Below, piece by piece: positions 27,801-46,689 of a stretch of DNA of 64,000 bases. Made by a program: the position numbers and the translations under genes. This DNA is from Candidatus Woesearchaeota archaeon. Lineage in GTDB: Archaea; Nanobdellota; Nanobdellia; Pacearchaeales; GW2011-AR1. The first letter of the stretch is position 1. Every line of letters starts with the position of its first letter. The stretch lies in contig CAYURQ010000001.1 of assembly GCA_964447315.1 (NCBI GenBank), forward strand, positions 27,351 through 91,350, read 5' to 3'. The notes below the pieces were generated by a model. That model had not been told where the DNA came from and did not search any database. It worked only from the letters and a program-made list of their open reading frames with translations.

Positions 27801-27827
27801 TTTTATTCTTCATAAGGGAGTGTTGGA
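27801..27827 (+). repeat. G-rich element, truncated copy
   Basis: 'ttttattcttcataagggagtgttgga' aligns with 'ttttatttttcataaggggtgttggttgga' (35.7 kb). It is followed by the BRE/TATA 'gaaaagtttatataat'. Confidence 0.45.
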
Positions 27828-27910
27828 ATAAAGAAAAGTTTATATAATATTAGAACATTAAAATATAGAGGTGATGGAACCTCAAGATTCCCAATTCTTG
27901 AAAAAATACT

Positions 27911-29068
27911 ATGGCGCAAGTTAAAATGCAAGCACCATTATTAGAAAATATTTTAGATGTTTCTAACTCATTTTACTTAGATACTTTAGGATATAAACCT
28001 GAGAGAACTTCTTTGCAAGAACTTCCTAAAGAAAGTTGGAGTAATCTTGCTAATGAAAGAGGTCTAAACACAAATTCATCTGGAGTATATTTTCCAAGAA
28101 ACCAATTAGCAGTAATAAAACAAGAGAATCCCTTGAGTTTATTTCATGAGTATTTTGGACATGGATTATATTGCGAACAAAGCTTAGATGGAAGAAAATT
28201 AGTTGAATTAGAAAAAAAGCTTTTAGAAAAAGAAAAAAACAGATTTAATGGATATGAATTTACTTTAAAGGAATTGCAGGAGTTTAGGATAGAAAATCCT
28301 ACATTTCAAGAATTAAATAGATTTAAAGAAGAAAACTTAGGAAAATATGAATTATTTGCCTTATGGACAGAATATTTATTGTCAAAAGAGAATAATATGC
28401 TTGGAGATTTTGAAAGAAGATATGATAATTTTTCAAGGAAAGATAAAGAAGTTATTGATTCTACAATAAACTTTTCAGAAAGTTATGGTAATTTAGCTGC
28501 TTTTTATGCTCAAGGAATGAGCAAAATAATGACCAAAGATAGAGTGACAAAATTAATCAAAGATATTTATAAAAAAGATTTAGATAAGATAAAATTTGCA
28601 TTAGTTTATGGTTCTAAAAAACCTTTTAGTGATATTGATGTATTTATGGTTGGCAAGGGAGCTCCTATTGAATCTCATACAGATTGGTTAGATGCAAAAT
28701 ACAAGAATACTGTAGAATTTCAAAATGGATTAAGAAATTTTGATGTAAGAATAAGTGTTCCTTTAATGAATGGGGAATTTTTATTTGGAGATGAAGAATA
28801 TTTCGAAAAATCAAAACAAAAAATACTCTCTCAACCTATTACTGAAAAATCGATAAAATACAATCTGAGATGGTCTTCTAGAATGCAAAGATTGAAAGAA
28901 GAAAATCAAGAAAATGAATTTTTAAGAAAAAAATTTAAAGGATACAGTCTTACTTATATTAATAATGCATTGGCTTTAAGAAAAGGAAAAAGAATCTTTA
29001 CTAAAGAAGGTTTGCTTTCATATTCGCCTAGCGAAAGTAACACAGAATTAAAAGGAGGAAAAGCATAA
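27911..29068 (+). CDS. multi-domain protein: N-terminal region with 'HEYFGH' motif plus a possible minimal nucleotidyltransferase segment
   Basis: 'KFALVYGSKKPFSDIDVFMVG' resembles the Pol-beta NTase GS...DxD strand, but the spacer is shorter than canonical. 'HEYFGH' is HExxxH, not HExxH. The alternative start ATG 27926 cannot be excluded. Confidence 0.45.
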   Translation: MAQVKMQAPLLENILDVSNSFYLDTLGYKPERTSLQELPKESWSNLANERGLNTNSSGVYFPRNQLAVIKQENPLSLFHEYFGHGLYCEQSLDGRKLVELEKKLLEKEKNRFNGYEFTLKELQEFRIENPTFQELNRFKEENLGKYELFALWTEYLLSKENNMLGDFERRYDNFSRKDKEVIDSTINFSESYGNLAAFYAQGMSKIMTKDRVTKLIKDIYKKDLDKIKFALVYGSKKPFSDIDVFMVGKGAPIESHTDWLDAKYKNTVEFQNGLRNFDVRISVPLMNGEFLFGDEEYFEKSKQKILSQPITEKSIKYNLRWSSRMQRLKEENQENEFLRKKFKGYSLTYINNALALRKGKRIFTKEGLLSYSPSESNTELKGGKA

Positions 29069-29368
29069 ATGAAACTTGAACAAATGACTGGAGAAATTTC
29101 ACAAGCATCTCAAGGAAGGAGCAAATACTTCGTGGTTGGAGATTTAAGTTACTTGTCTGGATCTCATTTATATATGGCTGATGAACTATATATAAAGAAT
29201 TTTAGAGATGGAAGTATACTCCACATTCATGAAGTAGATGGTAGAATCACTGGTGCTAATATTAGGGGCACTAATGATTTAAGAGGGACTCCAATTAGCA
29301 ACTATCAAGCAACAATGTTAGATGTCTTGCCTGGAAGCTCTAGAACAATCATAAAAAACGGATCATAA
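29069..29368 (+). CDS. hypothetical protein (99 aa), translationally coupled
   Basis: The ATG directly abuts the upstream stop. No motif. Confidence 0.45.
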   Translation: MKLEQMTGEISQASQGRSKYFVVGDLSYLSGSHLYMADELYIKNFRDGSILHIHEVDGRITGANIRGTNDLRGTPISNYQATMLDVLPGSSRTIIKNGS

Positions 29369-29369
29369 A

Positions 29370-29612
29370 ATGGTTTCAGAAAAGCAGATTAAGCACGAGC
29401 TTATAGCCATATATTCTAATTATCTTTCCAGTAAAGAGGATAAAAAGAATAGAGAAAAAGGGTATAAGCTTTATACAAAGTATTTCAATGGTGCAGAAAC
29501 TCTTTTTAGAGAAAATGTGAGTACTGCAATTTGGCAAGCCTTTAATCTGTACGAAGGCAAACTAAAAGAATCCAATGCAAAAAAGATTCTTGAAGATCTT
29601 CGCAAGACTTAA
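29370..29612 (+). CDS. hypothetical protein (80 aa), translationally coupled
   Basis: ATG 1 nt after the upstream stop. No motif. Confidence 0.45.
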   Translation: MVSEKQIKHELIAIYSNYLSSKEDKKNREKGYKLYTKYFNGAETLFRENVSTAIWQAFNLYEGKLKESNAKKILEDLRKT

Positions 29613-29661
29613 TTTTTATTTTATTTTTTATTTTTAGATAATAAAATTCATATTTAGAAAA

Positions 29662-30147: not shown

Positions 30148-30158
30148 ATATTTTTCAA

Positions 30159-30467
30159 TTAATAAGGTATCTTTTCACCTTCCCTAGAGCAATGCGTGCA
30201 ATTGCCTTCAAGACCACATTCTCCTCCAGAAAGCCTTAATCCTTGTCCAGGAGCATTATAATTTCCTTGATAATATCTACATCTTGGTTCAATAAGAAAT
30301 TCTTGCCATCCTCCTGAAGATCCAAGAGTGCTACGTCTAGATACTTTCATTCCCCCTCGAACTTCAACATCTTTTTCTTTAGAAGTGCAAGTGAATGGAT
30401 GATCATACTTTTCTCTTAAATTTTCCATTACTTCTTTAAGAACTGAATTTGAATATTCATAACTCAT
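30159..30467 (-). CDS. Cys-rich small protein, paralogue B (102 aa; start moved to 'MSYEYS')
   Basis: It shares 'KYDHPF.C', 'VRG.M.V', 'F.IEP.C.YY.G.Y' and a terminal 'C....C..C' with the upstream gene. Trimming removes the overlap with 30475..30783. Confidence 0.55.
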   Translation of the reverse strand: MSYEYSNSVLKEVMENLREKYDHPFTCTSKEKDVEVRGGMKVSRRSTLGSSGGWQEFLIEPRCRYYQGNYNAPGQGLRLSGGECGLEGNCTHCSREGEKIPY

Positions 30468-30474
30468 TTTTAAA

Positions 30475-30783: not shown

Positions 30784-30901
30784 TAAAAAATAATGCTCTT
30801 AATATTTAAATAAATTATTGTACTGAAAAATACTCTTCCTCTAAAACAGTAAACTAAGTAAAACAGATAATACTTCTGTAAAAGACGAAAGATTTAAATA
30901 G

Positions 30902-30919
30902 TAATATCAATTGATATTA
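30902..30919. promoter_or_regulatory. perfect 18-bp palindrome 'taatatcaattgatatta' between TATA box and start of 30940
   Basis: It lies between the TATA-like 'gaaagatttaaatag' (30889-30903) and 'aggag'/ATG 30940. The core 'atcaattgat' recurs at 59555-59566 in front of the paralogous gene. Confidence 0.55.
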
Positions 30920-30939
30920 TCATAAAAATAGGAGTTAAA

Positions 30940-31535: not shown

Positions 31536-31832
31536 TTATTCTTCATCTTCCTCAAGAACTAGTAAACTAAGTAAAACAATTAATACTCCTGCTATTATAG
31601 AAATTACCCAGCTTAGCCAACCTAACTCTAGAGTCTTAAACTTAATTATTAAAAAACCTGCAATACCAAGCAATCCTATGAATATATAATCTTTTCGTAT
31701 TTTTTCTTTGATAATTGGGGCGTGTTCTGAAAATACATCAAGAATTCCAGTAACAATTACAACAACCAATAATATATTTAAGTTAAGATAAGTGCTAACA
31801 AGTCCTGCCCATATTTGTTCAATCAATAACAA
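31536..31832 (-). CDS. small membrane protein, 'LGW' family copy 1 (98 aa; TTG start as tracked)
   Basis: Three hydrophobic segments and an acidic tail. Paralogues at 33542, 36225, 38237 and the C-terminal half of 44150..44632. Confidence 0.55.
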   Translation of the reverse strand: MLLIEQIWAGLVSTYLNLNILLVVVIVTGILDVFSEHAPIIKEKIRKDYIFIGLLGIAGFLIIKFKTLELGWLSWVISIIAGVLIVLLSLLVLEEDEE

Positions 31833-31903
31833 TATTAGATAAGTTACTAAGACTGTTTGAAAGATGTGATTTACTAGGGATGCGTTGTGTCTGTGGAAAA
31901 GGG

Positions 31904-31917
31904 AAAAGTTTATAGAA
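31904..31917 (+). promoter_or_regulatory. BRE/TATA-like promoter of 31938 (leaderless geometry)
   Basis: 'aaaagtttatagaa' centred 26 nt before ATG 31938. Duplicate at 36599-36612. Confidence 0.5.
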
Positions 31918-31937
31918 TTTTAAATTATTATTAAAAC

Positions 31938-32324
31938 ATGGAAGAAAGAGATGTAATAATTAAGATTTATGATAAAAAAGAAGAAATTAATAAAATAATT
32001 AAAGAATTAAAAAAATATTCATTTGAAGATTACATTAAAACTGGCCATTATGAAATTTCTTTATTAACTAAAGGAACAGATGAAGATAAATTGAGAGAGA
32101 TTTATCCTAAATTTGATATTATAGAATTAATAGCATTGAGGAGGCATAAAAATGGTTATGAGAATTATGATGTTTATTATGAACTTGAAAAAGGAAATTA
32201 TGCTTTGTTTGCCATAAATCTAGAAGGTAAAAAACCTAAAATAGATAATGCATTTATAGCTAATAGAATATTCAAAAATTTCTTAAAATCTATGGTAAAA
32301 AGATATGGTAATAAAATGGTTTAA
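31938..32324 (+). CDS. hypothetical protein (128 aa), possibly toxin-like
   Basis: No firm motif, only a loose resemblance to small RNase-fold toxins. Convergent with the DUF2283-like gene, overlapping it by 4 nt. Confidence 0.4.
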   Translation: MEERDVIIKIYDKKEEINKIIKELKKYSFEDYIKTGHYEISLLTKGTDEDKLREIYPKFDIIELIALRRHKNGYENYDVYYELEKGNYALFAINLEGKKPKIDNAFIANRIFKNFLKSMVKRYGNKMV

Positions 32325-32656
32325 TTAGTCATGCATTGCATAGGTATATTTGCTATAGGAATTTGTTTTATTCCTGCTTTTTCATCTTCTAATCCCACCC
32401 CAATAAATAATTGATCTCTGCTTGGTTTTACAATAAGATTTAATTTTTCAAAGTCTTTTATTTGTTGTATATTAAACCCTATTGCCTCAAGAAAATTAGA
32501 AAACTCTCTTACTTCTAAACTAACTACTTTTCCGTTTCCAGTAGTGCTAATAATAAAATCTCCAAAGCTAAAATTCTTCTTAACTTTCTCATTATCTTGA
32601 ATAGAAGCCACAATTAAGCTGTCTGTATTCTCATCATATTTAGAGACTTTTATCAT
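32321..32656 (-). CDS. DUF2283-like small protein
   Basis: N-terminal 'MIKVSKYDENTDSLIVAS' fits the DUF2283 'YD.e.D.lyi' pattern. Confidence 0.45.
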   Translation of the reverse strand: MIKVSKYDENTDSLIVASIQDNEKVKKNFSFGDFIISTTGNGKVVSLEVREFSNFLEAIGFNIQQIKDFEKLNLIVKPSRDQLFIGVGLEDEKAGIKQIPIANIPMQCMTN

Positions 32657-32756
32657 ATTTTATAATAATATTTTGTTTATTTATACCTTTCTATTCATCT
32701 TCTAGAGGCAAGTAAAACATATAAATCTTAATAAATAATTAAAACTCCTTTTCTTA

Positions 32757-33545
32757 ATGGGAATTGATTCATCTGAAGCAAATCAAATAATAAACGCTAT
32801 TGATTTTGTAAATCATCATTATGGAGGTTCTGCAAAAGTTACTGGAGAATTCTTTTGTAAAGACTGTAATGAGAAATTTCCTTCTGGAGAATTTCGTTAT
32901 GATAAAGGAGGGTATATTCCAGGGCCAGGTTTAATTAATTTGTCTTCTGAAAGGGCTGCATTTCCCCTTCATGAGTTTCATACTGTTCTTGCTTTAAAAG
33001 ATTCTGATGAGATCTATGAAAAAAGAGTGATTTTAGACTTATTTAATAAATCAAGAAACTGGAATTTTTATGATGTTCCAGAAAGATGCTTTGAGGATTA
33101 TATGAAAATAATGAAAACAAGCTCACTAATTTCTATTGCTAGTCTAGAAGCTAATCATTGGTGTTATTCACTTCATTCAACACCAGATTTTACAGAAGAA
33201 GAAATGCTGGAGGATCCTATTAAAAGGGATATTCTAGAAATGGATAGGAAGATTAATCTTAGGCCAAATAAATTAGAAAATGAGGTTAAACCAGAAATAA
33301 ATCGGGTTTTCAAAGACATAATTGGTAATAGAGAAATTCCAATAATTTATATTATTCCAGAAGAATTTAGAGGAGATTTTGGAGAGGAATATTATAAAAG
33401 GGATTTTATTGAAGCAACATACAATACTTTTAAAGCAAAGAACATACTTTTTCCAGATGAAAAAAGAAATTCTGTTATTAAAATAATTGATTCTTACTTT
33501 AAAGAAGCAGAATTAAAGCATGAAAGACACCCTTCTCCTTTTTAG
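32757..33545 (+). CDS. hypothetical protein (262 aa)
   Basis: Intact ORF with a single 'CKDC' pair and no recognisable domain. Confidence 0.45.
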   Translation: MGIDSSEANQIINAIDFVNHHYGGSAKVTGEFFCKDCNEKFPSGEFRYDKGGYIPGPGLINLSSERAAFPLHEFHTVLALKDSDEIYEKRVILDLFNKSRNWNFYDVPERCFEDYMKIMKTSSLISIASLEANHWCYSLHSTPDFTEEEMLEDPIKRDILEMDRKINLRPNKLENEVKPEINRVFKDIIGNREIPIIYIIPEEFRGDFGEEYYKRDFIEATYNTFKAKNILFPDEKRNSVIKIIDSYFKEAELKHERHPSPF

Positions 33546-33844
33546 GATTCTTCATCCTCTTCTAAAACAAGTAAACTAAGTAAAACAATTAATACTCCTG
33601 CAACAAGAGATATTACCCATGACAACCATCCTAATTCTAGTGTTTTAAACTTGATTATCAGGAAACCTGCAATACCAAGCAATCCTATAAATATGTAATC
33701 TTTAGGTTTTATTTTTTCTTTAATAATTGGAGCGTGTTCTGAAAATACATCAAGAATTCCAGTAACAATTACAACAACTAATAAGATATTTAAGTTAAGA
33801 TAAGTGCTAACAAGTCCTGCCCATATTTGCTCAATTAATAACAA
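33542..33844 (-). CDS. small membrane protein, 'LGW' family copy 2 (100 aa)
   Basis: About 90% identical by eye to 31536..31832. Confidence 0.55.
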   Translation of the reverse strand: MLLIEQIWAGLVSTYLNLNILLVVVIVTGILDVFSEHAPIIKEKIKPKDYIFIGLLGIAGFLIIKFKTLELGWLSWVISLVAGVLIVLLSLLVLEEDEES

Positions 33845-33913
33845 TATTAGATAAGTTACTAAGACTGTTTGAAAGGTGTGATTTACTAGGGATGTGTTGT
33901 GTCCACGGAATAG

Positions 33914-33952
33914 GAGGTGTTGGAGTGAGGGTTTGGGAATGTTGATAGGATT
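33914..33952 (+). repeat. G-rich element, subfamily 2
   Basis: 'gaggtgttggagtgagggtttgggaatgttgataggatt' aligns with 58345-58389 and 59480-59524. Confidence 0.5.
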
Positions 33953-33960
33953 ATTTTAAT

Positions 33961-34602
33961 TTATATAGAAGAATTAATATCTCCATGCACTACTAATGAT
34001 TGATAATTTTCAAATAAGAAAGGGGCATAAAATTGGGCTTCTGGAAAATCTTTAGTTGTACTTAGATACCAAATATTCTCTTCCATTTTATCTTTAGCTC
34101 TTTCAACTGACTTTTCTATAGTAGAACCTTCTATTAATGCTTTAACAAGGATATTTGAGGGTTCTAAAAATAATTTTGCTATTTTATCTCTTCTTGGAGA
34201 TGCCTCCTGATTAGGATCTTTCCCAAGATTAAAATCTCTCTCATATCCAATAAAACAAATGGCTCCTTTAGTAACTATTATCTTCCCTAGTTTTTGTCCT
34301 GATGAACAAGTTAGGGAATAAACAACCATGCCTGAAAGAACTTTTGCATTTTCTTTAGAGATTATTATCTCATTTTTATGCCCAGCAATCAAATCAGGAT
34401 TACCATGCCCATTAAACATAATAAAATCTGGTTTTTGCTTTTTTATAATTTTTAAGATTTCTTTTTTATTTGCTTTTTCTCTTTCCCTATTTATTGTTTT
34501 GTTTCCTCTTTCTTTCGAATATTTAACTAATTCTTTACTATAATAATATAAATAAGAGAGGGTCCCATCATGCTCGGGTCTGGAAAAAATAATATTACTC
34601 AT
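33961..34602 (-). CDS. minimal CHAT/caspase-like (clan CD) cysteine peptidase candidate (213 aa)
   Basis: Strand+His-Gly 'DFIMFNGHG' (His66) and strand+Cys 'VVYSLTCSSG' (Cys99), followed by 'KGAICFIGY', in the order and spacing typical of caspase-fold enzymes. Confidence 0.4.
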   Translation of the reverse strand: MSNIIFSRPEHDGTLSYLYYYSKELVKYSKERGNKTINREREKANKKEILKIIKKQKPDFIMFNGHGNPDLIAGHKNEIIISKENAKVLSGMVVYSLTCSSGQKLGKIIVTKGAICFIGYERDFNLGKDPNQEASPRRDKIAKLFLEPSNILVKALIEGSTIEKSVERAKDKMEENIWYLSTTKDFPEAQFYAPFLFENYQSLVVHGDINSSI

Positions 34603-34604
34603 AA

Positions 34605-34841
34605 TTATTGTTTTACTAAAAAACCTCTTTTGAAAGCTTTAAGATAGTTTAATTGGATTTCAACTATTCTATTTCCAATATCTGTATTATCTTCTATGTT
34701 TTTTATCAACTCATCTCTTTTCATAAATTTTCCATCAGACATTCCAAATGAAACACTTACATTTGGGGAAGCCTGCCTAATTCTTTCTATGACTATTTCT
34801 TTCTTTAACTGATCTATATTCTCTTGTTTATTTTCTTTCAT
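34605..34841 (-). CDS. hypothetical protein (78 aa), middle gene of the operon
   Basis: 2-nt gap to the downstream gene and a 4-nt overlap with the upstream gene. Confidence 0.45.
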   Translation of the reverse strand: MKENKQENIDQLKKEIVIERIRQASPNVSVSFGMSDGKFMKRDELIKNIEDNTDIGNRIVEIQLNYLKAFKRGFLVKQ

Positions 34842-35020
34842 ATTATTTCTAACTCTTTTAGTATTTTTAATATTTTCTCTCCATTTTCTGTCTTATTCTT
34901 TATTTCTTGGTAAGCAAGATTCCAACTTATTGGATTTTTATCTATAATTACTATTGTATTGTTTCTTTCTTTTATAGGCACTCCAGAATAAACTTTAAAG
35001 AAATCTTCTTCATTTACCAT
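34838..35020 (-). CDS. hypothetical protein (60 aa), first gene of the operon
   Basis: Intact ORF coupled to the next gene. Confidence 0.4.
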   Translation of the reverse strand: MVNEEDFFKVYSGVPIKERNNTIVIIDKNPISWNLAYQEIKNKTENGEKILKILKELEII

Positions 35021-35054
35021 TATTAAATTAGTAAATTAATCTTTTTAATTTTTG

Positions 35055-35165
35055 TCATTTCTTTTTCCTCGGCTTATTCCAATAAGGACTTTGGGGTTTC
35101 ATGAAACACTGAAGAGAAAAGGATATTTAAATGCTGTTTTTTGGAGTGTGGGTAAAACAATTCAT
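35055..35165 (-). pseudogene. decayed copy of the small zinc-ribbon gene (compare 46276..46413)
   Basis: It reads 'MNCFTHTPKNSI*ISFSLQCFMKPQSPYWNKPRKKK*'. The tail matches '...CPKCKSPYWNKPKKK' of the intact gene. It has an in-frame TAA and has lost Cys ligands. Confidence 0.55.
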
Positions 35166-35203
35166 CTTAATCTATATATTTTTTAATTAATGATTCTATA
35201 ATT

Positions 35204-35464
35204 TTAATTATACACTTTATCTCTTTTATCAATTTTTACTATCAAAATTATTTTCTGAGCTTCTTTAATTTTATATAATGCTCTAAAGTACCCAATTCTA
35301 TACCTAAAAACCATCTCATTATTATCTCTCCCAATAAACTTTGAATCACTTGGTACAGGAGTATTTTCAAGGTTTTTTAATCTCTTTTCAATCCTTTCTC
35401 TTTCTTTGGTATCTAATTTGTTTAAAAAATCCTGGGCTTTAACAGACAGCTCTACAGAATACAT
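35204..35464 (-). CDS. relE: RelE-family toxin (archaeal type)
   Basis: '...FRYRIGYFRALYKI.....I.IVKI.KRDKVY' is the archaeal RelE pattern. Confidence 0.7.
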   Translation of the reverse strand: MYSVELSVKAQDFLNKLDTKERERIEKRLKNLENTPVPSDSKFIGRDNNEMVFRYRIGYFRALYKIKEAQKIILIVKIDKRDKVYN

Positions 35465-35465
35465 T

Positions 35466-35627
35466 TTACAGTCTCTTTGTTCTGCCTTCTTTTAAATCTT
35501 CTTCAGCTTGATTTAAAGAGTTTATGTCGTCTTGGGTTAGAGTTACATCTATTATGTGCTCCTTTAAAGAATCCATATCTTTTTTTAAATTGTCTAGTTT
35601 ACTTATGATTAATTCTTCGTTTTCCAT
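35466..35627 (-). CDS. relB: RelB-like antitoxin (53 aa, absent from the ORF track)
   Basis: My translation is 'MENEELIISKLDNLKKDMDSLKEHIIDVTLTQDDINSLNQAEEDLKEGRTKRL'. Its stop is 1 nt before the relE ATG. Confidence 0.6.
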   Translation of the reverse strand: MENEELIISKLDNLKKDMDSLKEHIIDVTLTQDDINSLNQAEEDLKEGRTKRL

Positions 35628-35665
35628 ATCTTCCAATATAAAAATAACTATATAATCTTTTCGTA

Positions 35666-35715
35666 TTTTTTATTTTTCATAAGGGGTGTTGGTTGGAGCA
35701 TTTTAGGGAGTATTG
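35666..35715 (+). repeat. G-rich element, subfamily 1 (3'-end remnant of a paralogue of gene 46504)
   Basis: In frame it reads '...FVFFIFHKGCWLEHFREYCKLKKKK*', versus '...FFIFHRGCWLEHFREYYQLNKKK*' in the intact gene. There is no start codon upstream. Confidence 0.6.
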
Positions 35716-36224: not shown

Positions 36225-36527
36225 CTAATCTTGTTGTTCACCTTCTTCTAAAACAAGCAAACTAAGTAAAACAATTAATACTCCTGCTATTATAGAAATT
36301 ACCCAGCTTAGCCAACCTAACTCTAGAGTCTTAAACTTAATTATTAAAAAACCTGCAATACCAAGCAATCCTATGAATATATAATCTTTTCGTATTTTTT
36401 CTTTGATAATTGGGGCGTGTTCTGAAAATACATCAAGAATTCCAGTAACAATTACAACAACCAATAATATATTTAAGTTAAGATAAGTGCTAACAAGTCC
36501 TGCCCATATTTGTTCAATCAATAACAA
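36225..36527 (-). CDS. small membrane protein, 'LGW' family copy 3 (100 aa)
   Basis: Same as 31536..31832 except for the C-terminal tail ('LEEGEQQD' versus 'LEEDEE'). The repeat boundary falls in its 3' end. Confidence 0.55.
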   Translation of the reverse strand: MLLIEQIWAGLVSTYLNLNILLVVVIVTGILDVFSEHAPIIKEKIRKDYIFIGLLGIAGFLIIKFKTLELGWLSWVISIIAGVLIVLLSLLVLEEGEQQD

Positions 36528-36632
36528 TATTAGATAAGTTACTAAGACTGTTTGAAAGATGTGATTTACTAGGGATGCGTTGTGTCTGTGGAAAAGGGAA
36601 AAGTTTATAGAATTTTAAATTATTATTAAAAC

Positions 36633-37019
36633 ATGGAAGAAAGAGATGTAATAATTAAGATTTATGATAAAAAAGAAGAAATTAATAAAATAATTAAAGA
36701 ATTAAAAAAATATTCATTTGAAGATTACATTAAAACTGGCCATTATGAAATTTCTTTATTAACTAAAGGAACAGATGAAGATAAATTGAGAGAGATTTAT
36801 CCTAAATTTGATATTATAGAATTAATAGCATTGAGGAGGCATAAAAATGGTTATGAGAATTATGATGTTTATTATGAACTTGAAAAAGGAAATTATGCTT
36901 TGTTTGCCATAAATCTAGAAGGTAAAAAACCTAAAATAGATAATGCATTTATAGCTAATAGAATATTCAAAAATTTCTTAAAATCTATGGTAAAAAGATA
37001 TGGTAATAAAATGGTTTAA
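36633..37019 (+). CDS. hypothetical protein (128 aa), duplicate of 31938..32324
   Basis: Identical translation. Confidence 0.4.
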   Translation: MEERDVIIKIYDKKEEINKIIKELKKYSFEDYIKTGHYEISLLTKGTDEDKLREIYPKFDIIELIALRRHKNGYENYDVYYELEKGNYALFAINLEGKKPKIDNAFIANRIFKNFLKSMVKRYGNKMV

Positions 37020-37351
37020 TTAGTCATGCATTGCATAGGTATATTTGCTATAGGAATTTGTTTTATTCCTGCTTTTTCATCTTCTAATCCCACCCCAATA
37101 AATAATTGATCTCTGCTTGGTTTTACAATAAGATTTAATTTTTCAAAGTCTTTTATTTGTTGTATATTAAACCCTATTGCCTCAAGAAAATTAGAAAACT
37201 CTCTTACTTCTAAACTAACTACTTTTCCGTTTCCAGTAGTGCTAATAATAAAATCTCCAAAGCTAAAATTCTTCTTAACTTTCTCATTATCTTGAATAGA
37301 AGCCACAATTAAGCTGTCTGTATTCTCATCATATTTAGAGACTTTTATCAT
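37016..37351 (-). CDS. DUF2283-like small protein, duplicate of 32321..32656
   Basis: Identical translation. Confidence 0.45.
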   Translation of the reverse strand: MIKVSKYDENTDSLIVASIQDNEKVKKNFSFGDFIISTTGNGKVVSLEVREFSNFLEAIGFNIQQIKDFEKLNLIVKPSRDQLFIGVGLEDEKAGIKQIPIANIPMQCMTN

Positions 37352-37451
37352 ATTTTATAATAATATTTTGTTTATTTATACCTTTCTATTCATCTTCTAG
37401 AGGCAAGTAAAACATATAAATCTTAATAAATAATTAAAACTCCTTTTCTTA

Positions 37452-38240
37452 ATGGGAATTGATTCATCTGAAGCAAATCAAATAATAAACGCTATTGATT
37501 TTGTAAATCATCATTATGGAGGTTCTGCAAAAGTTACTGGAGAATTCTTTTGTAAAGACTGTAATGAGAAATTTCCTTCTGGAGAATTTCGTTATGATAA
37601 AGGAGGGTATATTCCAGGGCCAGGTTTAATTAATTTGTCTTCTGAAAGGGCTGCATTTCCCCTTCATGAGTTTCATACTGTTCTTGCTTTAAAAGATTCT
37701 GATGAGATCTATGAAAAAAGAGTGATTTTAGACTTATTTAATAAATCAAGAAACTGGAATTTTTATGATGTTCCAGAAAGATGCTTTGAGGATTATATGA
37801 AAATAATGAAAACAAGCTCACTAATTTCTATTGCTAGTCTAGAAGCTAATCATTGGTGTTATTCACTTCATTCAACACCAGATTTTACAGAAGAAGAAAT
37901 GCTGGAGGATCCTATTAAAAGGGATATTCTAGAAATGGATAGGAAGATTAATCTTAGGCCAAATAAATTAGAAAATGAGGTTAAACCAGAAATAAATCGG
38001 GTTTTCAAAGACATAATTGGTAATAGAGAAATTCCAATAATTTATATTATTCCAGAAGAATTTAGAGGAGATTTTGGAGAGGAATATTATAAAAGGGATT
38101 TTATTGAAGCAACATACAATACTTTTAAAGCAAAGAACATACTTTTTCCAGATGAAAAAAGAAATTCTGTTATTAAAATAATTGATTCTTACTTTAAAGA
38201 AGCAGAATTAAAGCATGAAAGACACCCTTCTCCTTTTTAG
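37452..38240 (+). CDS. hypothetical protein (262 aa), duplicate of 32757..33545
   Basis: Identical translation. Confidence 0.45.
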   Translation: MGIDSSEANQIINAIDFVNHHYGGSAKVTGEFFCKDCNEKFPSGEFRYDKGGYIPGPGLINLSSERAAFPLHEFHTVLALKDSDEIYEKRVILDLFNKSRNWNFYDVPERCFEDYMKIMKTSSLISIASLEANHWCYSLHSTPDFTEEEMLEDPIKRDILEMDRKINLRPNKLENEVKPEINRVFKDIIGNREIPIIYIIPEEFRGDFGEEYYKRDFIEATYNTFKAKNILFPDEKRNSVIKIIDSYFKEAELKHERHPSPF

Positions 38241-38539
38241 GATTCTTCATCCTCTTCTAAAACAAGTAAACTAAGTAAAACAATTAATACTCCTGCAACA
38301 AGAGATATTACCCATGACAACCATCCTAATTCTAGTGTTTTAAACTTGATTATCAGGAAACCTGCAATACCAAGCAATCCTATAAATATGTAATCTTTAG
38401 GTTTTATTTTTTCTTTAATAATTGGAGCGTGTTCTGAAAATACATCAAGAATTCCAGTAACAATTACAACAACTAATAAGATATTTAAGTTAAGATAAGT
38501 GCTAACAAGTCCTGCCCATATTTGCTCAATTAATAACAA
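38237..38539 (-). CDS. small membrane protein, 'LGW' family copy 4
   Basis: Translation identical to 33542..33844. Confidence 0.55.
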   Translation of the reverse strand: MLLIEQIWAGLVSTYLNLNILLVVVIVTGILDVFSEHAPIIKEKIKPKDYIFIGLLGIAGFLIIKFKTLELGWLSWVISLVAGVLIVLLSLLVLEEDEES

Positions 38540-38608
38540 TATTAGATAAGTTACTAAGACTGTTTGAAAGGTGTGATTTACTAGGGATGTGTTGTGTCCA
38601 CGGAATAG

Positions 38609-38647
38609 GAGGTGTTGGAGTGAGGGTTTGGGAATGTTGATAGGATT
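38609..38647 (+). repeat. G-rich element, subfamily 2 (duplicate of 33914..33952)
   Basis: Lies within repeat copy 2. Confidence 0.5.
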
Positions 38648-38655
38648 ATTTTAAT

Positions 38656-39297
38656 TTATATAGAAGAATTAATATCTCCATGCACTACTAATGATTGATA
38701 ATTTTCAAATAAGAAAGGGGCATAAAATTGGGCTTCTGGAAAATCTTTAGTTGTACTTAGATACCAAATATTCTCTTCCATTTTATCTTTAGCTCTTTCA
38801 ACTGACTTTTCTATAGTAGAACCTTCTATTAATGCTTTAACAAGGATATTTGAGGGTTCTAAAAATAATTTTGCTATTTTATCTCTTCTTGGAGATGCCT
38901 CCTGATTAGGATCTTTCCCAAGATTAAAATCTCTCTCATATCCAATAAAACAAATGGCTCCTTTAGTAACTATTATCTTCCCTAGTTTTTGTCCTGATGA
39001 ACAAGTTAGGGAATAAACAACCATGCCTGAAAGAACTTTTGCATTTTCTTTAGAGATTATTATCTCATTTTTATGCCCAGCAATCAAATCAGGATTACCA
39101 TGCCCATTAAACATAATAAAATCTGGTTTTTGCTTTTTTATAATTTTTAAGATTTCTTTTTTATTTGCTTTTTCTCTTTCCCTATTTATTGTTTTGTTTC
39201 CTCTTTCTTTCGAATATTTAACTAATTCTTTACTATAATAATATAAATAAGAGAGGGTCCCATCATGCTCGGGTCTGGAAAAAATAATATTACTCAT
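38656..39297 (-). CDS. minimal CHAT/caspase-like peptidase candidate, duplicate of 33961..34602
   Basis: Identical translation. Confidence 0.4.
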   Translation of the reverse strand: MSNIIFSRPEHDGTLSYLYYYSKELVKYSKERGNKTINREREKANKKEILKIIKKQKPDFIMFNGHGNPDLIAGHKNEIIISKENAKVLSGMVVYSLTCSSGQKLGKIIVTKGAICFIGYERDFNLGKDPNQEASPRRDKIAKLFLEPSNILVKALIEGSTIEKSVERAKDKMEENIWYLSTTKDFPEAQFYAPFLFENYQSLVVHGDINSSI

Positions 39298-39299
39298 AA

Positions 39300-39536
39300 T
39301 TATTGTTTTACTAAAAAACCTCTTTTGAAAGCTTTAAGATAGTTTAATTGGATTTCAACTATTCTATTTCCAATATCTGTATTATCTTCTATGTTTTTTA
39401 TCAACTCATCTCTTTTCATAAATTTTCCATCAGACATTCCAAATGAAACACTTACATTTGGGGAAGCCTGCCTAATTCTTTCTATGACTATTTCTTTCTT
39501 TAACTGATCTATATTCTCTTGTTTATTTTCTTTCAT
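39300..39536 (-). CDS. hypothetical protein (78 aa), duplicate of 34605..34841
   Basis: Identical translation. Confidence 0.45.
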   Translation of the reverse strand: MKENKQENIDQLKKEIVIERIRQASPNVSVSFGMSDGKFMKRDELIKNIEDNTDIGNRIVEIQLNYLKAFKRGFLVKQ

Positions 39537-39715
39537 ATTATTTCTAACTCTTTTAGTATTTTTAATATTTTCTCTCCATTTTCTGTCTTATTCTTTATTT
39601 CTTGGTAAGCAAGATTCCAACTTATTGGATTTTTATCTATAATTACTATTGTATTGTTTCTTTCTTTTATAGGCACTCCAGAATAAACTTTAAAGAAATC
39701 TTCTTCATTTACCAT
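39533..39715 (-). CDS. hypothetical protein (60 aa), duplicate of 34838..35020
   Basis: Identical translation. Confidence 0.4.
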   Translation of the reverse strand: MVNEEDFFKVYSGVPIKERNNTIVIIDKNPISWNLAYQEIKNKTENGEKILKILKELEII

Positions 39716-39749
39716 TATTAAATTAGTAAATTAATCTTTTTAATTTTTG

Positions 39750-39860
39750 TCATTTCTTTTTCCTCGGCTTATTCCAATAAGGACTTTGGGGTTTCATGAA
39801 ACACTGAAGAGAAAAGGATATTTAAATGCTGTTTTTTGGAGTGTGGGTAAAACAATTCAT
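39750..39860 (-). pseudogene. decayed zinc-ribbon gene copy (duplicate of 35055..35165)
   Basis: Lies within repeat copy 2. Confidence 0.55.
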
Positions 39861-39898
39861 CTTAATCTATATATTTTTTAATTAATGATTCTATAATT

Positions 39899-40159
39899 TT
39901 AATTATACACTTTATCTCTTTTATCAATTTTTACTATCAAAATTATTTTCTGAGCTTCTTTAATTTTATATAATGCTCTAAAGTACCCAATTCTATACCT
40001 AAAAACCATCTCATTATTATCTCTCCCAATAAACTTTGAATCACTTGGTACAGGAGTATTTTCAAGGTTTTTTAATCTCTTTTCAATCCTTTCTCTTTCT
40101 TTGGTATCTAATTTGTTTAAAAAATCCTGGGCTTTAACAGACAGCTCTACAGAATACAT
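39899..40159 (-). CDS. relE: RelE-family toxin, duplicate of 35204..35464
   Basis: Identical translation. Confidence 0.7.
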   Translation of the reverse strand: MYSVELSVKAQDFLNKLDTKERERIEKRLKNLENTPVPSDSKFIGRDNNEMVFRYRIGYFRALYKIKEAQKIILIVKIDKRDKVYN

Positions 40160-40160
40160 T

Positions 40161-40322
40161 TTACAGTCTCTTTGTTCTGCCTTCTTTTAAATCTTCTTCA
40201 GCTTGATTTAAAGAGTTTATGTCGTCTTGGGTTAGAGTTACATCTATTATGTGCTCCTTTAAAGAATCCATATCTTTTTTTAAATTGTCTAGTTTACTTA
40301 TGATTAATTCTTCGTTTTCCAT
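40161..40322 (-). CDS. relB: RelB-like antitoxin, duplicate of 35466..35627
   Basis: Offset 4,695 bp within repeat copy 2. Confidence 0.6.
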   Translation of the reverse strand: MENEELIISKLDNLKKDMDSLKEHIIDVTLTQDDINSLNQAEEDLKEGRTKRL

Positions 40323-40360
40323 ATCTTCCAATATAAAAATAACTATATAATCTTTTCGTA

Positions 40361-40410
40361 TTTTTTATTTTTCATAAGGGGTGTTGGTTGGAGCATTTTA
40401 GGGAGTATTG
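40361..40410 (+). repeat. G-rich element, subfamily 1 (duplicate of 35666..35715; the downstream tail differs)
   Basis: After 40410 it continues 'ggggaggaagggaaaagtagataaatatt', which is homologous to the tail of the 41.5-kb copy rather than the 35.7-kb copy. Confidence 0.6.
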
Positions 40411-40591
40411 GGGGAGGAAGGGAAAAGTAGATAAATATTCATTAAACAATAATATCACAATGAGAAAAAGTTTATATATCCCGCATTGTTTGATAAATTA
40501 TGAGAGTAAAATGGGGGGTGAATGTATTTTCTGAAAGATAGTTTTATAAATATAATTAAATCTCTCTTTTATAAAGATTTTAAGTAAAAAA

Positions 40592-40846
40592 ATGGAACAG
40601 CAATTTATGACAAATAATTCAGATAATTTGCAAGAACTCTTTGATTCTAAAAAAAATGAAGTTGTTTCTCTTTGTAAGGAAGTTGCTGAAAATGAATTTG
40701 ACTTATTTGAATTTAATCTTTTCTTAGCTTCTATGGGGAAGAAAAAATTAGATGAATCTACTAAGAAAGTAAGAGAACTTAGAAAGAAAGTAGATAAAGG
40801 AAAGATTGATTTAACAAAAGACGAAGATATGTTGGATGATTATTAA
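40592..40846 (+). CDS. hypothetical acidic protein (84 aa)
   Basis: Intact ORF, convergent with 40843..41427 (4-nt overlap). Confidence 0.35.
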   Translation: MEQQFMTNNSDNLQELFDSKKNEVVSLCKEVAENEFDLFEFNLFLASMGKKKLDESTKKVRELRKKVDKGKIDLTKDEDMLDDY

Positions 40847-41427
40847 TGCCTTTTCTTTTTATTAGAATGTTTATTTTTTGAAAAATTTCTTAACATCTTA
40901 TTTACCTCTTGTTCTGATCCAGGTTCTATAATTGTTGGTACATCCAAATCAATATTTAAATAATTACAAGGATCTTGAAAATCTCTTCTATTATTTGTTG
41001 AGATGCAATTTATTCCAGCAATACAATATACAGATATTATTCTTAAATCATTATCCCCTGCCTTCCAATTATTGTCTTTTCTTTCTGTTTTTAGTTTGTC
41101 AAAAAGTGCATTTACCTTGGCTTGATTTACATCTTTCTTTTTTATGGGTTTTATCCTATTTCTTCTTAAAAAATTAAAGATTTCTCTTTTATTTAATTCT
41201 TTATCTGGATTCTTTTTAGATAACAGATTTAATAATTCACTAAAAACAATATAATTTGTATGAAGAAAATTGCCTCTTTTTGCAATTCTAGGCCTATATC
41301 CCCAAGTTCCTTTTTCATTTTCCATCCAAGAAAAAGAGTTATCTGTATCTAAACCAATTTTTCTTAAAATTTTATTTCTTGCTACAACTCTTTCCATATG
41401 AATAACCTTCTTTTTCTTATTATCCAT
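40843..41427 (-). CDS. hypothetical protein with possible PIN-like C-terminal motif (194 aa; trimmed to 'MDNKKKK')
   Basis: 'DNDLRIISVYCIAGINCISTNNRRDF' resembles the PIN 'D..I.A.A...G..L.T.D.DF' end. The tracked N-terminal 61 aa merely reads through the G-rich element. Confidence 0.3.
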   Translation of the reverse strand: MDNKKKKVIHMERVVARNKILRKIGLDTDNSFSWMENEKGTWGYRPRIAKRGNFLHTNYIVFSELLNLLSKKNPDKELNKREIFNFLRRNRIKPIKKKDVNQAKVNALFDKLKTERKDNNWKAGDNDLRIISVYCIAGINCISTNNRRDFQDPCNYLNIDLDVPTIIEPGSEQEVNKMLRNFSKNKHSNKKKRH

Positions 41428-41467
41428 TATTTGTTTAATCAAACTAAATTTAAAAATATATAGCAAG

Positions 41468-41514
41468 ATTAAAGAATTTTTTATTTTCCATAGGGGGTGT
41501 TGGTTGGAGCATTT
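41468..41514 (+). repeat. 47-nt exact direct repeat (left copy), G-rich element subfamily 1
   Basis: 'attaaagaattttttattttccatagggggtgttggttggagcattt' is identical to 46609..46655. It is followed by 'gggaaaagtagataaatg', which acts as BRE/TATA for 41576. Confidence 0.85.
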
Positions 41515-41575
41515 GGGGGAGTGTTTGGAGGGAGAGAGGGAAAAGTAGATAAATGTTAAAACAATCTCTTTTTTT

Positions 41576-44074: not shown

Positions 44075-44149
44075 ACAAATAAAGTATTAAGTAACCCTAT
44101 AATTAAAGTAATCAAACCCTTATATTCTTTTTTTATAATGTTTATTTGA

Positions 44150-44632
44150 CTAAGAATAATGAGATATCCTATTTCTATCTTCTATTGAATAATCCCTTTC
44201 TTCTTGAGGTGGTTCATAGTGAGATTCATTTTTATTTTCAGGCTCGTCTTTTTCAGTAAGAACCATCCAGCTTAATAAAATAATAATTAATCCTCCTAGT
44301 ATTGCAATTGCATAACCAATCCAACCTAAATCTTTTAACTTAAGATAAATAATTCCTGCTCCTAATATTCCTAAAATAATTATGAAAACTTTGTCTTTCC
44401 ATGTTATTGGCTTTTCTTTTTGTTTCTTTATTTTTGGAGGAAAAATAATGCTTATTGCTCCAACAATGATTACTGCAAACATGAACCAATTAATATTAAT
44501 CAAGGAATCAATTGTTGTTTGATAAAATTCTCTTAATAACAAGGTAATTAAAAACAAGAACAACAATATTTGAAATGTTGTGTGAAATATGTGCTTCACA
44601 TGTTCTATTATTATTTTTTGTTTTCTGTTCAT
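44150..44632 (-). CDS. membrane protein whose C-terminal half belongs to the 'LGW' family (copy 5)
   Basis: 'DKVFIIILGILGAGIIYLKLKDLGWIGYAIAILGGLIIILLSWMVLTEKDE' parallels 'DYIFIGLLGIAGFLIIKFKTLELGWLSWVISIIAGVLIVLLSLLVLEEDE'. Confidence 0.55.
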   Translation of the reverse strand: MNRKQKIIIEHVKHIFHTTFQILLFLFLITLLLREFYQTTIDSLININWFMFAVIIVGAISIIFPPKIKKQKEKPITWKDKVFIIILGILGAGIIYLKLKDLGWIGYAIAILGGLIIILLSWMVLTEKDEPENKNESHYEPPQEERDYSIEDRNRISHYS

Positions 44633-45132
44633 TCTACCTTAACCTTCTTTAATTTATCTGCAAGAGCTTTTAATTCTTCATCTGAAGCTCTTGGACCTTC
44701 AATAGAAGTTATATATCCTGGATATTCTTTGAAAAAAACTTCTAAATCATCTAAATATTGTTTCCATTCCCCTTTTTTAAGATGTTCTGTTTTATGCATA
44801 GGAAAAAGCTTAGTATGGGTATGATCTATTCCCATTCCTTCTGCCATAAGTCCAACTCTTCCAACATCCTTGAAATGTTTTTTTAATATTTTAGATACTT
44901 TTTTTGATGCAATTATAAGTTCTTTTAAATTGTTATCTTGTAAATCAAGAACATCGCTTTTTAGATGTTTTTTAGTTATAACTACTGTTGAACCCTCTGT
45001 ACTTGGAAAAGGAGATAAAAATGCCATGTGTTTTTTATCTTCCCAGAATAATCCATGAAGAGGAATGTTTCCTTTAACTATTTCACAGAAAATGCATTTT
45101 CCCTCTTTTGTTTTTGAATCATAGTTTGCCAT
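44629..45132 (-). CDS. HIT-family (histidine triad) hydrolase
   Basis: 'CIFCEIVKG' N-terminal motif and the triad 'IDHTHTKLFP'. Confidence 0.8.
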   Translation of the reverse strand: MANYDSKTKEGKCIFCEIVKGNIPLHGLFWEDKKHMAFLSPFPSTEGSTVVITKKHLKSDVLDLQDNNLKELIIASKKVSKILKKHFKDVGRVGLMAEGMGIDHTHTKLFPMHKTEHLKKGEWKQYLDDLEVFFKEYPGYITSIEGPRASDEELKALADKLKKVKVE

Positions 45133-46274
45133 TATCCAAACAACCCCTTAAAATTTACATAATCATTAATATTAAACTTTTCTGCATTACCACTATCTAT
45201 TTCCCATACAACATGATAAATATAATCCATAATATATCCTTCATATTTCTTTGAATCAACATACCAATCTCCTTGCTGTGAATCATAACTTAATTCTGGT
45301 TGTTCTAAAACAATTACATACAATGGAGGATATTTCCCTTCCCCTAAATGTGGGACATAAATCCAATGAACATTCCAGTAAAATGAATTCTTGAAATACA
45401 ATGTATTCGGAGCATAAAATATAATTCCTAGTTTTTTATCTTCATTATAAAATATTTCATATTTTGAATTGTTTATTTCGTGGGTAGAGCCTTGTCGGAT
45501 TGTTACTAATTTATTTGTATCAACAATTTCTGAAACACTCTCACGAAGTTCTTGTGAAATATTTGTTGTTTGAGTTCCATTTTCCCTTAATATTATATCT
45601 ATTGTTTGGTTTGTTTCTGTTAAGCTATAATCATTATTGTAAATCTCTAATTTATCTGTGTAAATATCATATCCAGAAAGAATTAATCCATATGCAAAGT
45701 TGCCAAGCTCTGAATTATCATTTGAAGAAGCTGAAAATTCTATCTTGAAATAAGGTTTTTGTTTGAATAAATAATAATCAAACCCTGAATTTAAGTTTTC
45801 AGAGTATAAATCAACTGAAACTTCTTTTATCCTTTTTTCATTAGTTTCTGAAACTGAAGTTTGGTTTGGATTTGTAAACCATCCTATTTTGGTTACTTGT
45901 TCGGGGTCTGTTGTCAAAGAATCAATAATAATTCCATTTGAAGTAGATAAGGTAGTATAATTTGTTCCATTATAAGTTATTATTTGTCTATAACTTTCTT
46001 TTCCAAATAATCTATCTTCATTATTATTTAGATTTAGTTTAGACTCCCATCCACTTAAAAGAAATGTGTTTGAATTTTTGTAATAATTGTAAGAAGTTAT
46101 TCCAGTTGAATTTGAATTTCTTATACTCATTAAATCGGCATTTTTAGAGGGTTCTGCAAACATGAAGATTCCAACAAAAACTAAAATAATCAATAGGATT
46201 GCTCCAAATAAAACCCAATGGTGTTTTATCTCGTATTCTATTTCTTCAATTAAATTATGTTCGTGTTCAGGCAT
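45132..46274 (-). CDS. membrane-anchored extracytoplasmic protein (380 aa; start moved to 'MPEHEH')
   Basis: N-terminal TM 'WVLFGAILLIILVFVGIFMF', then an Asn/Ser/Thr/Tyr-rich domain. The new start sits 1 nt after the stop of the zinc-ribbon gene. Confidence 0.5.
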   Translation of the reverse strand: MPEHEHNLIEEIEYEIKHHWVLFGAILLIILVFVGIFMFAEPSKNADLMSIRNSNSTGITSYNYYKNSNTFLLSGWESKLNLNNNEDRLFGKESYRQIITYNGTNYTTLSTSNGIIIDSLTTDPEQVTKIGWFTNPNQTSVSETNEKRIKEVSVDLYSENLNSGFDYYLFKQKPYFKIEFSASSNDNSELGNFAYGLILSGYDIYTDKLEIYNNDYSLTETNQTIDIILRENGTQTTNISQELRESVSEIVDTNKLVTIRQGSTHEINNSKYEIFYNEDKKLGIIFYAPNTLYFKNSFYWNVHWIYVPHLGEGKYPPLYVIVLEQPELSYDSQQGDWYVDSKKYEGYIMDYIYHVVWEIDSGNAEKFNINDYVNFKGLFG

Positions 46275-46275
46275 T

Positions 46276-46413
46276 TTATTTTTTCTTAGGCTTATTCCAA
46301 TAAGGACTTTTACATTTAGGGCAAACCATAGGCAACTCATTAGAACGAGTTATCCAAGAATGATTACATCTCTCACATTTACATTCAAAAACCTTAATCT
46401 CTTTCTTAGACAT
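46276..46413 (-). CDS. small zinc-ribbon protein (45 aa, absent from the ORF track)
   Basis: My translation is 'MSKKEIKVFECKCERCNHSWITRSNELPMVCPKCKSPYWNKPKKK'. It has two CxxC pairs and is coupled to the downstream gene ('TAAAATG'). Confidence 0.6.
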   Translation of the reverse strand: MSKKEIKVFECKCERCNHSWITRSNELPMVCPKCKSPYWNKPKKK

Positions 46414-46503
46414 AATTATCAAAACCATTCCAAGTTTAAATGTATTACTATGATAATATACTCACATAAATTTATAAACTATATATATCTATAATATATT
46501 ACT

Positions 46504-46689
46504 ATGAGTAACTACAAACCCAAAACAAGATATTGTTCTAAGTGCCTTCAGAGTATAGATGAAACCAAAGATGATTATGTTATGTTAATTAGTAAAACAG
46601 GGCAAAAAATTAAAGAATTTTTTATTTTCCATAGGGGGTGTTGGTTGGAGCATTTTAGGGAGTATTATCAATTAAACAAAAAGAAATAA
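46504..46689 (+). CDS. small zinc-finger-like protein (61 aa) whose 3' end is the G-rich repeat
   Basis: 'CSKC'...'HRGC' ligand pairs. The TATA-like 'aaatttataaact' (46468-46480) is about 26-30 nt before the ATG. The 3' third equals repeat subfamily 1. Confidence 0.5.
   Translation: MSNYKPKTRYCSKCLQSIDETKDDYVMLISKTGQKIKEFFIFHRGCWLEHFREYYQLNKKK
46609..46655 (+). repeat. 47-nt exact direct repeat (right copy), inside CDS 46504..46689
   Basis: Identical to 41468..41514. It encodes 'IKEFFIFHRGCWLEH'. Confidence 0.85.

Follow-up and report, generated by a model that had tools for sequence, protein, structure and literature searches.

The repeated 3' end of a small zinc-finger gene as a probable marker of recombination junctions in an accessory region of an archaeal chromosome

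Background

Direct repeats that are formed from the end of a gene and bound exchanged DNA are a known kind of arrangement. The 64,000-nt stretch analysed here (the window: Candidatus Woesearchaeota archaeon, GenBank assembly GCA_964447315.1, contig CAYURQ010000001.1, positions 27,351 to 91,350), a segment of an archaeal chromosome with 27% GC, holds a variant of it in which the repeated sequence is the end of a gene for a small zinc-finger protein, ZnF. In the Pyrococcus yayanosii island PYG1, the direct repeats are 44 bp long and only one of them lies in an intact tRNA-Gln gene (PMC9897764). The repeats at our locus resemble such att duplications at gene 3' ends in three ways: they are direct repeats of 45-80 nt that equal a gene 3' end, one copy lies in an intact gene while the other is a silent fragment, and the DNA between repeats is present or absent as a unit when the window is compared with a syntenic contig, L014. 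They differ from the tRNA-gene duplications in that the target is a small protein-coding gene, and from att integrative elements more broadly in that no integrase was found with the repeats among the window open reading frames (ORFs) scanned against Pfam, that units go down to 0.9-1.1 kb with one or two genes, and that the window relics lie upstream of the intact gene in an array with mixed flanks.

The attC sites of integrons fold as single-stranded hairpins from imperfect inverted repeats (R''-L''...L'-R'), and the array lies next to a gene for IntI, a tyrosine recombinase with an IntI-specific domain, which is optional for clusters of attC sites lacking integron integrases (CALINs). Integron cassette arrays and CALINs have been reported in archaeal metagenome-assembled genomes (MAGs) (Ghaly et al. 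2022, PMC9668308). As in these arrays, short repeats in the same orientation separate accessory genes at our locus (toxin-antitoxin, methyltransferase, hypothetical), and, as in CALINs, no adjacent integrase was found. Unlike integron sites, the repeats are coding-derived and have no attC hairpin fold, and the genes between them lie on both strands, with promoters of their own, at spacings of up to 7.8 kb. The inter-copy segments of the window are 1.1-7.8 kb long and carry 2-11 ORFs on both strands, not the tandem short ORFs, generally of one orientation and each with a site behind it, by which integrons are recognised.

Flexible or 'additive' genomic islands and minimal mobile elements are exchanged by homologous recombination in conserved flanks. 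The accessory region described here likewise lies beside a glycosylation cluster, has its cargo swapped between conserved flanks and includes a gene-for-gene replacement (HIT/HD), but the homology is a short gene-end relic inside the island instead of full conserved flanking genes. The pilE/pilS and vlsE systems work with silent, 5'-truncated cassettes, and our locus shares with them promoterless, same-orientation 3' partial copies near one expressed gene; unlike them, it has no second conserved segment past the variable tail, its variable part is tiny, and there is no evidence of non-reciprocal conversion.

Results and discussion

The repeat is the 3' end of the ZnF gene

The gene and the copies of its end, all given in window coordinates, are the following.

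46504..46689, plus strand: intact ZnF ORF, 61 aa, CxxC...FHxxCW, with type I tail EYYQLNKKK and stop; source sequence of the repeat
27798..27826, plus strand: copy T, truncated to the left half of the core, lying where the housekeeping block gives way to the accessory region and followed directly by AAAGAAAAGTTTATATAA
35666..35737, plus strand: copy A, starting at codon F39, core and type I-like tail EYCKLKKKK and stop; right end of duplicate X1 (below)
40361..40436, plus strand: copy B, starting at codon F39, core and type II tail, which differs from that of C by a 2-nt indel; right end of duplicate X2
41468..41554, plus strand: copy C, starting at codon I36, core and type II tail ECLEGEREK and stop, without a start codon
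46609..46689, plus strand: copy D, core (codons 36-55) and type I tail, within the intact ZnF gene; the 'empty site' relative to L014
46604..46623, unstranded: perfect palindrome AAAAAATT-AAAG-AATTTTTT in ZnF codons 34-40, unique in the window

A 32-mer core occurs four times, always on the plus strand, at 35683, 40378, 41494 (with 3 mismatches) and 46635, where 100 shuffles give an expectation of 0. A profile built from the window copies and homologous genes recovers the same four copies (E ≤ 2e-15) together with the truncated copy T (E=0.005), and yields no further significant match on either strand; the 27 kb of housekeeping genes and the glycosylation cluster, promoters included, are free of it. 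The same-strand, G-rich repeat family that a sequence-only reading of this DNA had described is thus real. The exact repeat of 47 nt that it reported (41468-41514 = 46609-46655) is confirmed, as are the placement of the 46.6-kb copy within ORF 46504..46689 and the observation that the 35.7-kb copy, A, still reads FFIFHKGCWLEHFREYCKLKKKK up to a stop codon with no 5' part. Identity between relic and gene reaches 47/47 and 48/51; copies A and D agree at 93% over 75 nt, and their homology ends 2 nt past the stop codon. Copies A and B are not independent, both being part of one duplication. In public collections, the 19-21-nt core has only chance matches, all of them to bacterial genomes, while metagenome and viral contigs give none. 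A replication-origin reading, as origin recognition box (ORB) or polar motif, was dropped: GTTGG-type words are not clustered outside the family.

Every copy has a coding origin. In a tblastn search of the window with ZnF, the pieces recovered at A, B and C are all C-terminal and not one N-terminal piece turns up, bearing out the earlier proposal that the non-genic copies are 3' remnants of this gene. Copies A, B and C, as well as a relic in L014, have no in-frame start codon and are therefore silent. Their right flanks are of two kinds: A and D continue as ...EY(C/Y)(K/Q)L(K/N)KKK and stop, while B and C continue as a G-rich stretch, GGGGGAGGAAGGGAAAAGTAGATAAAT. Both tail types are found intact in homologous genes (...EYWELEGK and stop in L014, ...EYWEMEGKG... 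in L013), and the DNA of L014 and L013 aligns with B and C through the stop codon into a downstream promoter-like motif, AAAAGTAGATA. Because the G-rich stretch of B and C aligns with coding tails, every part of the element can be assigned to the ZnF 3' end, with its two tail types, plus the start of the next promoter. Judged from the sequence, then, the copies consist of the 3'-terminal coding segment of ZnF, from about codon 36-39 to the stop, and the putative promoter of the following gene, and are not a gene-independent motif. The G content of the element is explained by the codons of RGCWLEHFREY and WELEGK.

ZnF itself belongs to a small family. A profile search of 1.8 billion representatives returned 17 proteins at E ≤ 1e-3, all of them about 45-90 aa in length apart from one 672-aa repeat protein; C11, C14, H43, C46 and W47 are invariant in the alignments, and family membership of the protein is borne out by these residues together with a length of about 60-70 aa. 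Homologues are encoded on AT-rich archaeal contigs (L008/L009, L011/L012, L013 and L014). The AlphaFold2 model, a β-hairpin plus helix, is confident (predicted local distance difference test score, pLDDT, 88); ZnF falls into no family of Pfam or PHROG, and its fold has no significant match in the PDB. A virus or plasmid origin was considered for the gene and rejected: there are no PHROG, phage, plasmid or IMG/VR relatives.

A repeat-bounded cassette and mosaic flanks

The contig L014, 6.9 kb long and taken from Logan assemblies, is syntenic with the window at 80-88% nucleotide identity. Common to both is the order 447-aa gene, M-like gene (see below), 377/402-aa gene, small Zn-ribbon gene, ZnF and flippase gene. 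In the window, ZnF with its type I tail is joined directly to the flippase gene. In L014, ZnF carries a type II tail and is followed by a methyltransferase gene, then by a type I ZnF 3' relic (4821-4897, FFIFHKICWMEHFEEYYQLNKKK and stop), and only then by the flippase gene; the tail of this relic and its downstream promoter equal window copy D for 39 nt, continuing into the flippase gene. A methyltransferase cassette of 931 bp is present in L014 and absent in the window, and both of its breakpoints fall within the repeated segment. The sequence-only reading had asked of synteny whether segments bounded by the repeats come and go as units, and in this one comparison such a segment does. Gene and relic in L014 match at 40/51 positions; 8 of the 9 core differences lie at third codon positions, and the two copies therefore diverged while both were still coding.

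The more general claim of that reading, that the repeats delimit cassettes, holds for the 931-bp cassette but not for the two other differences between window and L014. One is an 11-kb indel running from inside an M gene to the promoter of the 447-aa gene, the other a precise swap of a HIT gene for an HD gene (44629-45132 versus L014 1880-2416), and neither is bounded by the ZnF element. In the HIT/HD swap, the breakpoints coincide exactly with start and stop codons of the adjoining genes. In the more distant relatives L015-L017, whose flippase is 63% identical, ZnF is absent from this position.

Within the window, one segment recalls the L014 cassette.

40411..41467, unstranded: B-to-C segment, 1.1 kb, with an 84-aa ORF (plus strand) and a PIN-like gene (minus strand)

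Its flanks resemble those of the cassette, with a core and type II tail on the left and a remnant starting at I36 on the right, and its cargo differs. Two left variants and two right flanks occur in every possible pairing among the four full copies (A, L1R1; B, L1R2; C, L2R2; D, L2R1), and resemblance is closer between copies of one genome (44-48/51) than across genomes (31-43/51). The 289-aa gene that follows copy C has no relatives but itself.

All of this takes place in an accessory region (27.9-46.5 kb) between a housekeeping block, which fills the first 27 kb of the window and includes RpoB, EF-2, EF-1α, SMC and RNase HII, and a glycosylation cluster at 46.7-55 kb with flippase, methyltransferase, glycosyltransferase and epimerase genes. 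By Pfam, the accessory region holds ParE and PIN toxin genes, NUDIX and HIT genes, and genes for small membrane proteins and hypothetical proteins. The closest named relative of the flippase is a protein of a Candidatus Pacearchaeota MAG (61% identity), which marks the organism as DPANN-like. There are 0 tRNA genes in the window, ruling out a tRNA as target.

An exact duplication that ends at the core

Two of the four full copies form the right ends of an exact duplication, and other gene families have left relics in and around it.

31564..35715, unstranded: X1, first copy of the exact duplication; left edge decays in an M-family membrane gene 3' end, with a sharp right edge where core A ends
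36259..40410, unstranded: X2, second copy, ending at core B
31536-31832, 33542-33844, 36225-36527, 38237-38539 and 44150-44632, all minus strand: M-family genes, four near-identical and one diverged backbone copy
30843..30881, minus strand: frameshifted M-family 3' relic
35062..35092, with its duplicate at 39757-39787, minus strand: Zn-ribbon gene 3' relic KSPYWNKPRKK, 29/31 nt against the gene at 46276..46428

X1 and X2 are 100% identical over 4152 nt, and the right edge lies at the last base of the core, so that the earlier statement that a copy (35715/40410) forms the sharp right end of this duplication is borne out. The duplication has a period of 4695 nt, and the spacer of 543 nt outside the exact repeat holds tail I', a NUDIX gene (35782-36189, minus strand) and the diverged 3' tip of an M gene. 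The left edge sits in the last codons of an M-family gene; the duplication therefore has one end at the core and the other inside another repeated gene end. The duplication is read from a metagenome-derived contig, in which an assembly-graph loop is possible; besides such a loop, a very recent duplication event or a 4.7-kb circle, integrated or episomal, could account for it.

The M family consists of small membrane proteins with two transmembrane segments, 98-160 aa long and ending ...LLVLEEDEE. A further M-family 3' relic is found at the start of L014 (44-145). The Zn-ribbon relic occupies the intergenic gap of the ParE operon region, and the intact Zn-ribbon gene ends KSPYWNKPKKK and stop. 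All seven independent relics are 3' ends.

Relics and recombination through short homology

Taken together, these observations make it very probable that the gene-end relics mark recombination junctions, and they identify the element as the mark of a recombination hot spot, neither a new RNA nor a proven mobile element. The cassette is polymorphic for presence and absence, the flanks are mosaic, and the duplication ends at the core. As for mechanism, the chances that it is driven by homology and not site-specific are about even. In favour of homology, relics of Zn-ribbon and M gene 3' ends in the same region point to a general recombination process instead of a site dedicated to ZnF. Among the window ORFs that were scanned, Pfam detected no recombinase domain, neither integrase nor transposase, and the DNA separating any two window copies holds no integrase domain. 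The L014 cassette holds only the methyltransferase gene, and the G-rich core has no inverted repeat of the recombinase type. Of the earlier suggestion of a footprint of site-specific integration or recombination at a gene end, one comparison bears out the cassette behaviour; an integrase mechanism finds no support in the Pfam scan or in the structure of the core. We infer that the exchange is the work of the general homologous-recombination machinery, with short repeats as its substrate, and not of a dedicated recombinase, and on balance we lean towards the overall explanation that the copies are relics that recombine through short homology, by loop-out, re-insertion and unequal exchange.

On this explanation, copies would arise and be re-used as DNA is exchanged by recombination within a segment of 50-80 nt. 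A circle or fragment carrying core, tail, promoter and cargo may recombine with another copy of the core in a Campbell-type insertion, which would leave the cargo between direct repeats, as with the methyltransferase gene in L014; loop-out of cargo between two direct copies would give the arrangement seen at window copy D. Unequal or double exchange among ZnF copies and M-family gene ends could duplicate or replace whole blocks, the 4.15-kb duplication being a candidate example. Silent 3' relics would survive such events, and promoter-bearing 5' fragments would not.

Several observations weigh against recombination through short homology alone. Four remnants (A/B, T, C and the L014 relic) have left ends that lie within ~12 nt of one another at a unique AT palindrome, and the left ends of all remnants fall within the palindrome or at its right arm; random breakpoints would scatter, and the clustering therefore speaks for a site-specific cut or else for common ancestry in one or two founder relics. 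In the window, relics T, A, B and C precede the intact gene (D), while in L014 the intact gene is upstream and the relic downstream, and the window order is not what simple serial insertions into the gene would produce. The codons of the gene end are unusual as well: in intact ZnF homologues, 41/54 codons of the 3' part end in G (76%) against 24/79 of the 5' part (30%; p=2e-7), where the genome-wide background is 14-19% and the decayed L014 relic retains 1/9. The 3' thirds scored were window 46618-46689, L014 3893-3961, L013 131-235 and L011 10097-10159, and the bias suggests selection on the nucleotide sequence itself. The presence or absence of the cassette rests on one comparator genome, and no extra copies occur at the other ZnF loci in the DNA available for them (L011/L012, of which L011 is 12.6 kb, L013 and L008/L009). 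Upstream of ZnF, L011 has a variable region of its own with a duplicated 165-aa gene (1473-1970, 6773-7270), ParE-like and MNT/HEPN-like pairs, and no ZnF relics.

Competing explanations

The palindrome and the codon bias would both be compatible with a dedicated site-specific cassette system, analogous to integrons or CALINs, in which the ZnF 3' end is att-like and a recombinase encoded elsewhere, possibly guided by ZnF, moves cassettes of tail, promoter and gene. Besides the relic left ends that cluster at the palindrome and the conserved G-ending codons of the core, such a system would account for the exchange of cargo between conserved flanks (the methyltransferase gene of L014, the 84-aa ORF and PIN gene of the window) and for an exact duplication that stops at the junction of core and tail. 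We nevertheless regard it as unlikely: no recombinase is found in the Pfam-scanned window ORFs or among the precomputed Pfam matches of the called genes of L014, the core has no inverted-repeat or hairpin structure, inter-copy segments vary from 0.9 to 7.8 kb with genes on both strands, other gene families leave similar relics, and two of the three differences between window and L014 are not bounded by the element. In its fullest form this would be an integron-like platform of DPANN-type archaea, with a site in the last ~20 ZnF codons, kept G-rich by selection and cut at or near AAAAAATT-N4-AATTTTTT, and with a recombinase encoded elsewhere or recruited by ZnF that shuffles promoter-plus-gene cassettes beside the glycosylation cluster, a proposal that we hold to be more doubtful still. 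The conserved G-ending codons of the ZnF 3' third, kept across lineages and lost in the decayed L014 relic, could also reflect a functional cis-regulatory module, or 'mobile promoter', in which the G-rich segment is an upstream element that is copied with a B recognition element (BRE) and TATA box and retained for its role in driving the gene behind it. The sequence-only reading had placed such boxes directly after most copies, and a BRE/TATA-like sequence, judged by eye only, does follow T, B, C and D within 0-30 nt together with a plus-strand gene (after copy C it is AAAAGTAGATAAAT, 30 nt ahead of the ATG at 41576). Copy A, however, has no box able to serve a plus-strand gene and no such gene downstream, the NUDIX gene converging on it; the profile search finds the element at none of the housekeeping and glycosylation promoters of the window, and the predicted promoter sits in the tail, which varies among copies, and not in the shared core. 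We therefore consider a regulatory module improbable.

An assembly artefact would concern part of the evidence, the A/B pair, if X1, spacer and X2 were an assembly-graph loop that in reality represents a circle of 4695 bp or two strain variants. The X copies are indeed 100% identical over 4152 nt, and an independent Logan assembly (L010, 1730 bp, from a sample with the same 262-aa protein) breaks at the repeat borders. Against this, both X copies have distinct flanks that join sensibly to unique sequence, and the evidence from C, D, T and L014 does not depend on the duplication; an artefact, too, seems to us improbable. Silent-cassette switching, in which promoterless 5'-truncated copies donate C-terminal tails to an expressed ZnF in the manner of pilE/pilS or vls, would fit silent copies in which the 5' part and start codon are missing and the tails are alternative ones, and the tail of the expressed gene does differ, being type I in the window and type II in L014, while the alternative type is retained as a relic. 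It is very improbable all the same, because the tails span no more than 6-10 residues in a protein that is small and presumably cytoplasmic, the tail of B has a frameshifting indel, and homology on one side only of the variable part means that an exchange would swap the downstream genes too. Scarcely credible, finally, is a small structured RNA or G-quadruplex element made from the G-rich strand. The sequence is G-rich and C-poor in a genome of 27% GC, and C and B have three to four tracts of at least three G; but A and D have only two such tracts, the encoded peptides account for the G content, the window has 0 Rfam matches at the gathering threshold, and the z-scores of the RNA and single-stranded DNA folds computed for A, B, C and D, each on both strands, range from -1.2 to +1.2. 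With no Rfam match and z-scores near 0, the small-RNA alternative raised by the sequence-only reading fails, and small RNA, attC hairpin and G-quadruplex were rejected as candidates; a core that has no inverted repeat and no fold above shuffled sequence excludes integron attC sites and structured RNAs.

Recombination through short homology thus remains the explanation that we favour. The gain and shuffling of accessory genes in the small genomes of DPANN archaea are little known. In either case, exchanged blocks of toxin-antitoxin, methyltransferase and membrane genes beside a glycosylation cluster are repeatedly bordered here by a relic of 50-80 nt. If plain short-homology recombination is at work, the locus is a concrete example of island building at the level of sequence, and a caution to annotators that a G-rich 'motif' in an AT-rich genome may be a relic of coding sequence; a dedicated enzyme would instead make it a new cassette-capture system.

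Other repeats in the window

A second set of repeats, S2, was found in and beyond the accessory region.

33911-33956 (= 38606-38651), 58343-58392 and 59477-59527, plus strand: S2 repeats of ~45 nt, G/T-rich, GAGGTGTTGGAGT..GGGTTGGAATATGTTGATAGGAT, profile E 1e-6 to 3e-10

The sequence-only reading had taken these for a more diverged subfamily of the ZnF repeat. They are a real repeat family by their own profile, but the ZnF-core profile misses them (E=11), and the only link to the core is a single 14/15-nt match; a descent from diverged ZnF ends is unsupported, and S2 is treated as a separate family. One frame reads G(W/L)xML(I/R)G in all S2 copies, which may be the relic of another gene.

A paralogous pair of minus-strand genes at 56064-56450 and 57971-58318 (115-128 aa, 87% nucleotide identity) shares upstream sequence that diverges exactly at the start of S2. 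A second pair, on the plus strand at 30940-31218 and 59574-59861, encodes proteins of 92-95 aa, and the one that was scanned has no Pfam match. At 56550-56613, just upstream of an AAA_14/DUF4143 ATPase gene (56640), two tandem units of 32 nt, each with a 12-nt perfect palindrome pair, AAAACTTTCCTT-N5-AAGGAAAGTTTT, and ending in TTTTATATA, look like a duplicated operator-plus-TATA. Two adjacent, partly overlapping minus-strand ORFs at 30159-30783 encode similar small proteins rich in Gly and Cys (...FIEPRCRYYQGNY / FIEPKCSYYRGGY...), and they produce the only strongly C-rich plus-strand stretch, at 30628-30704.

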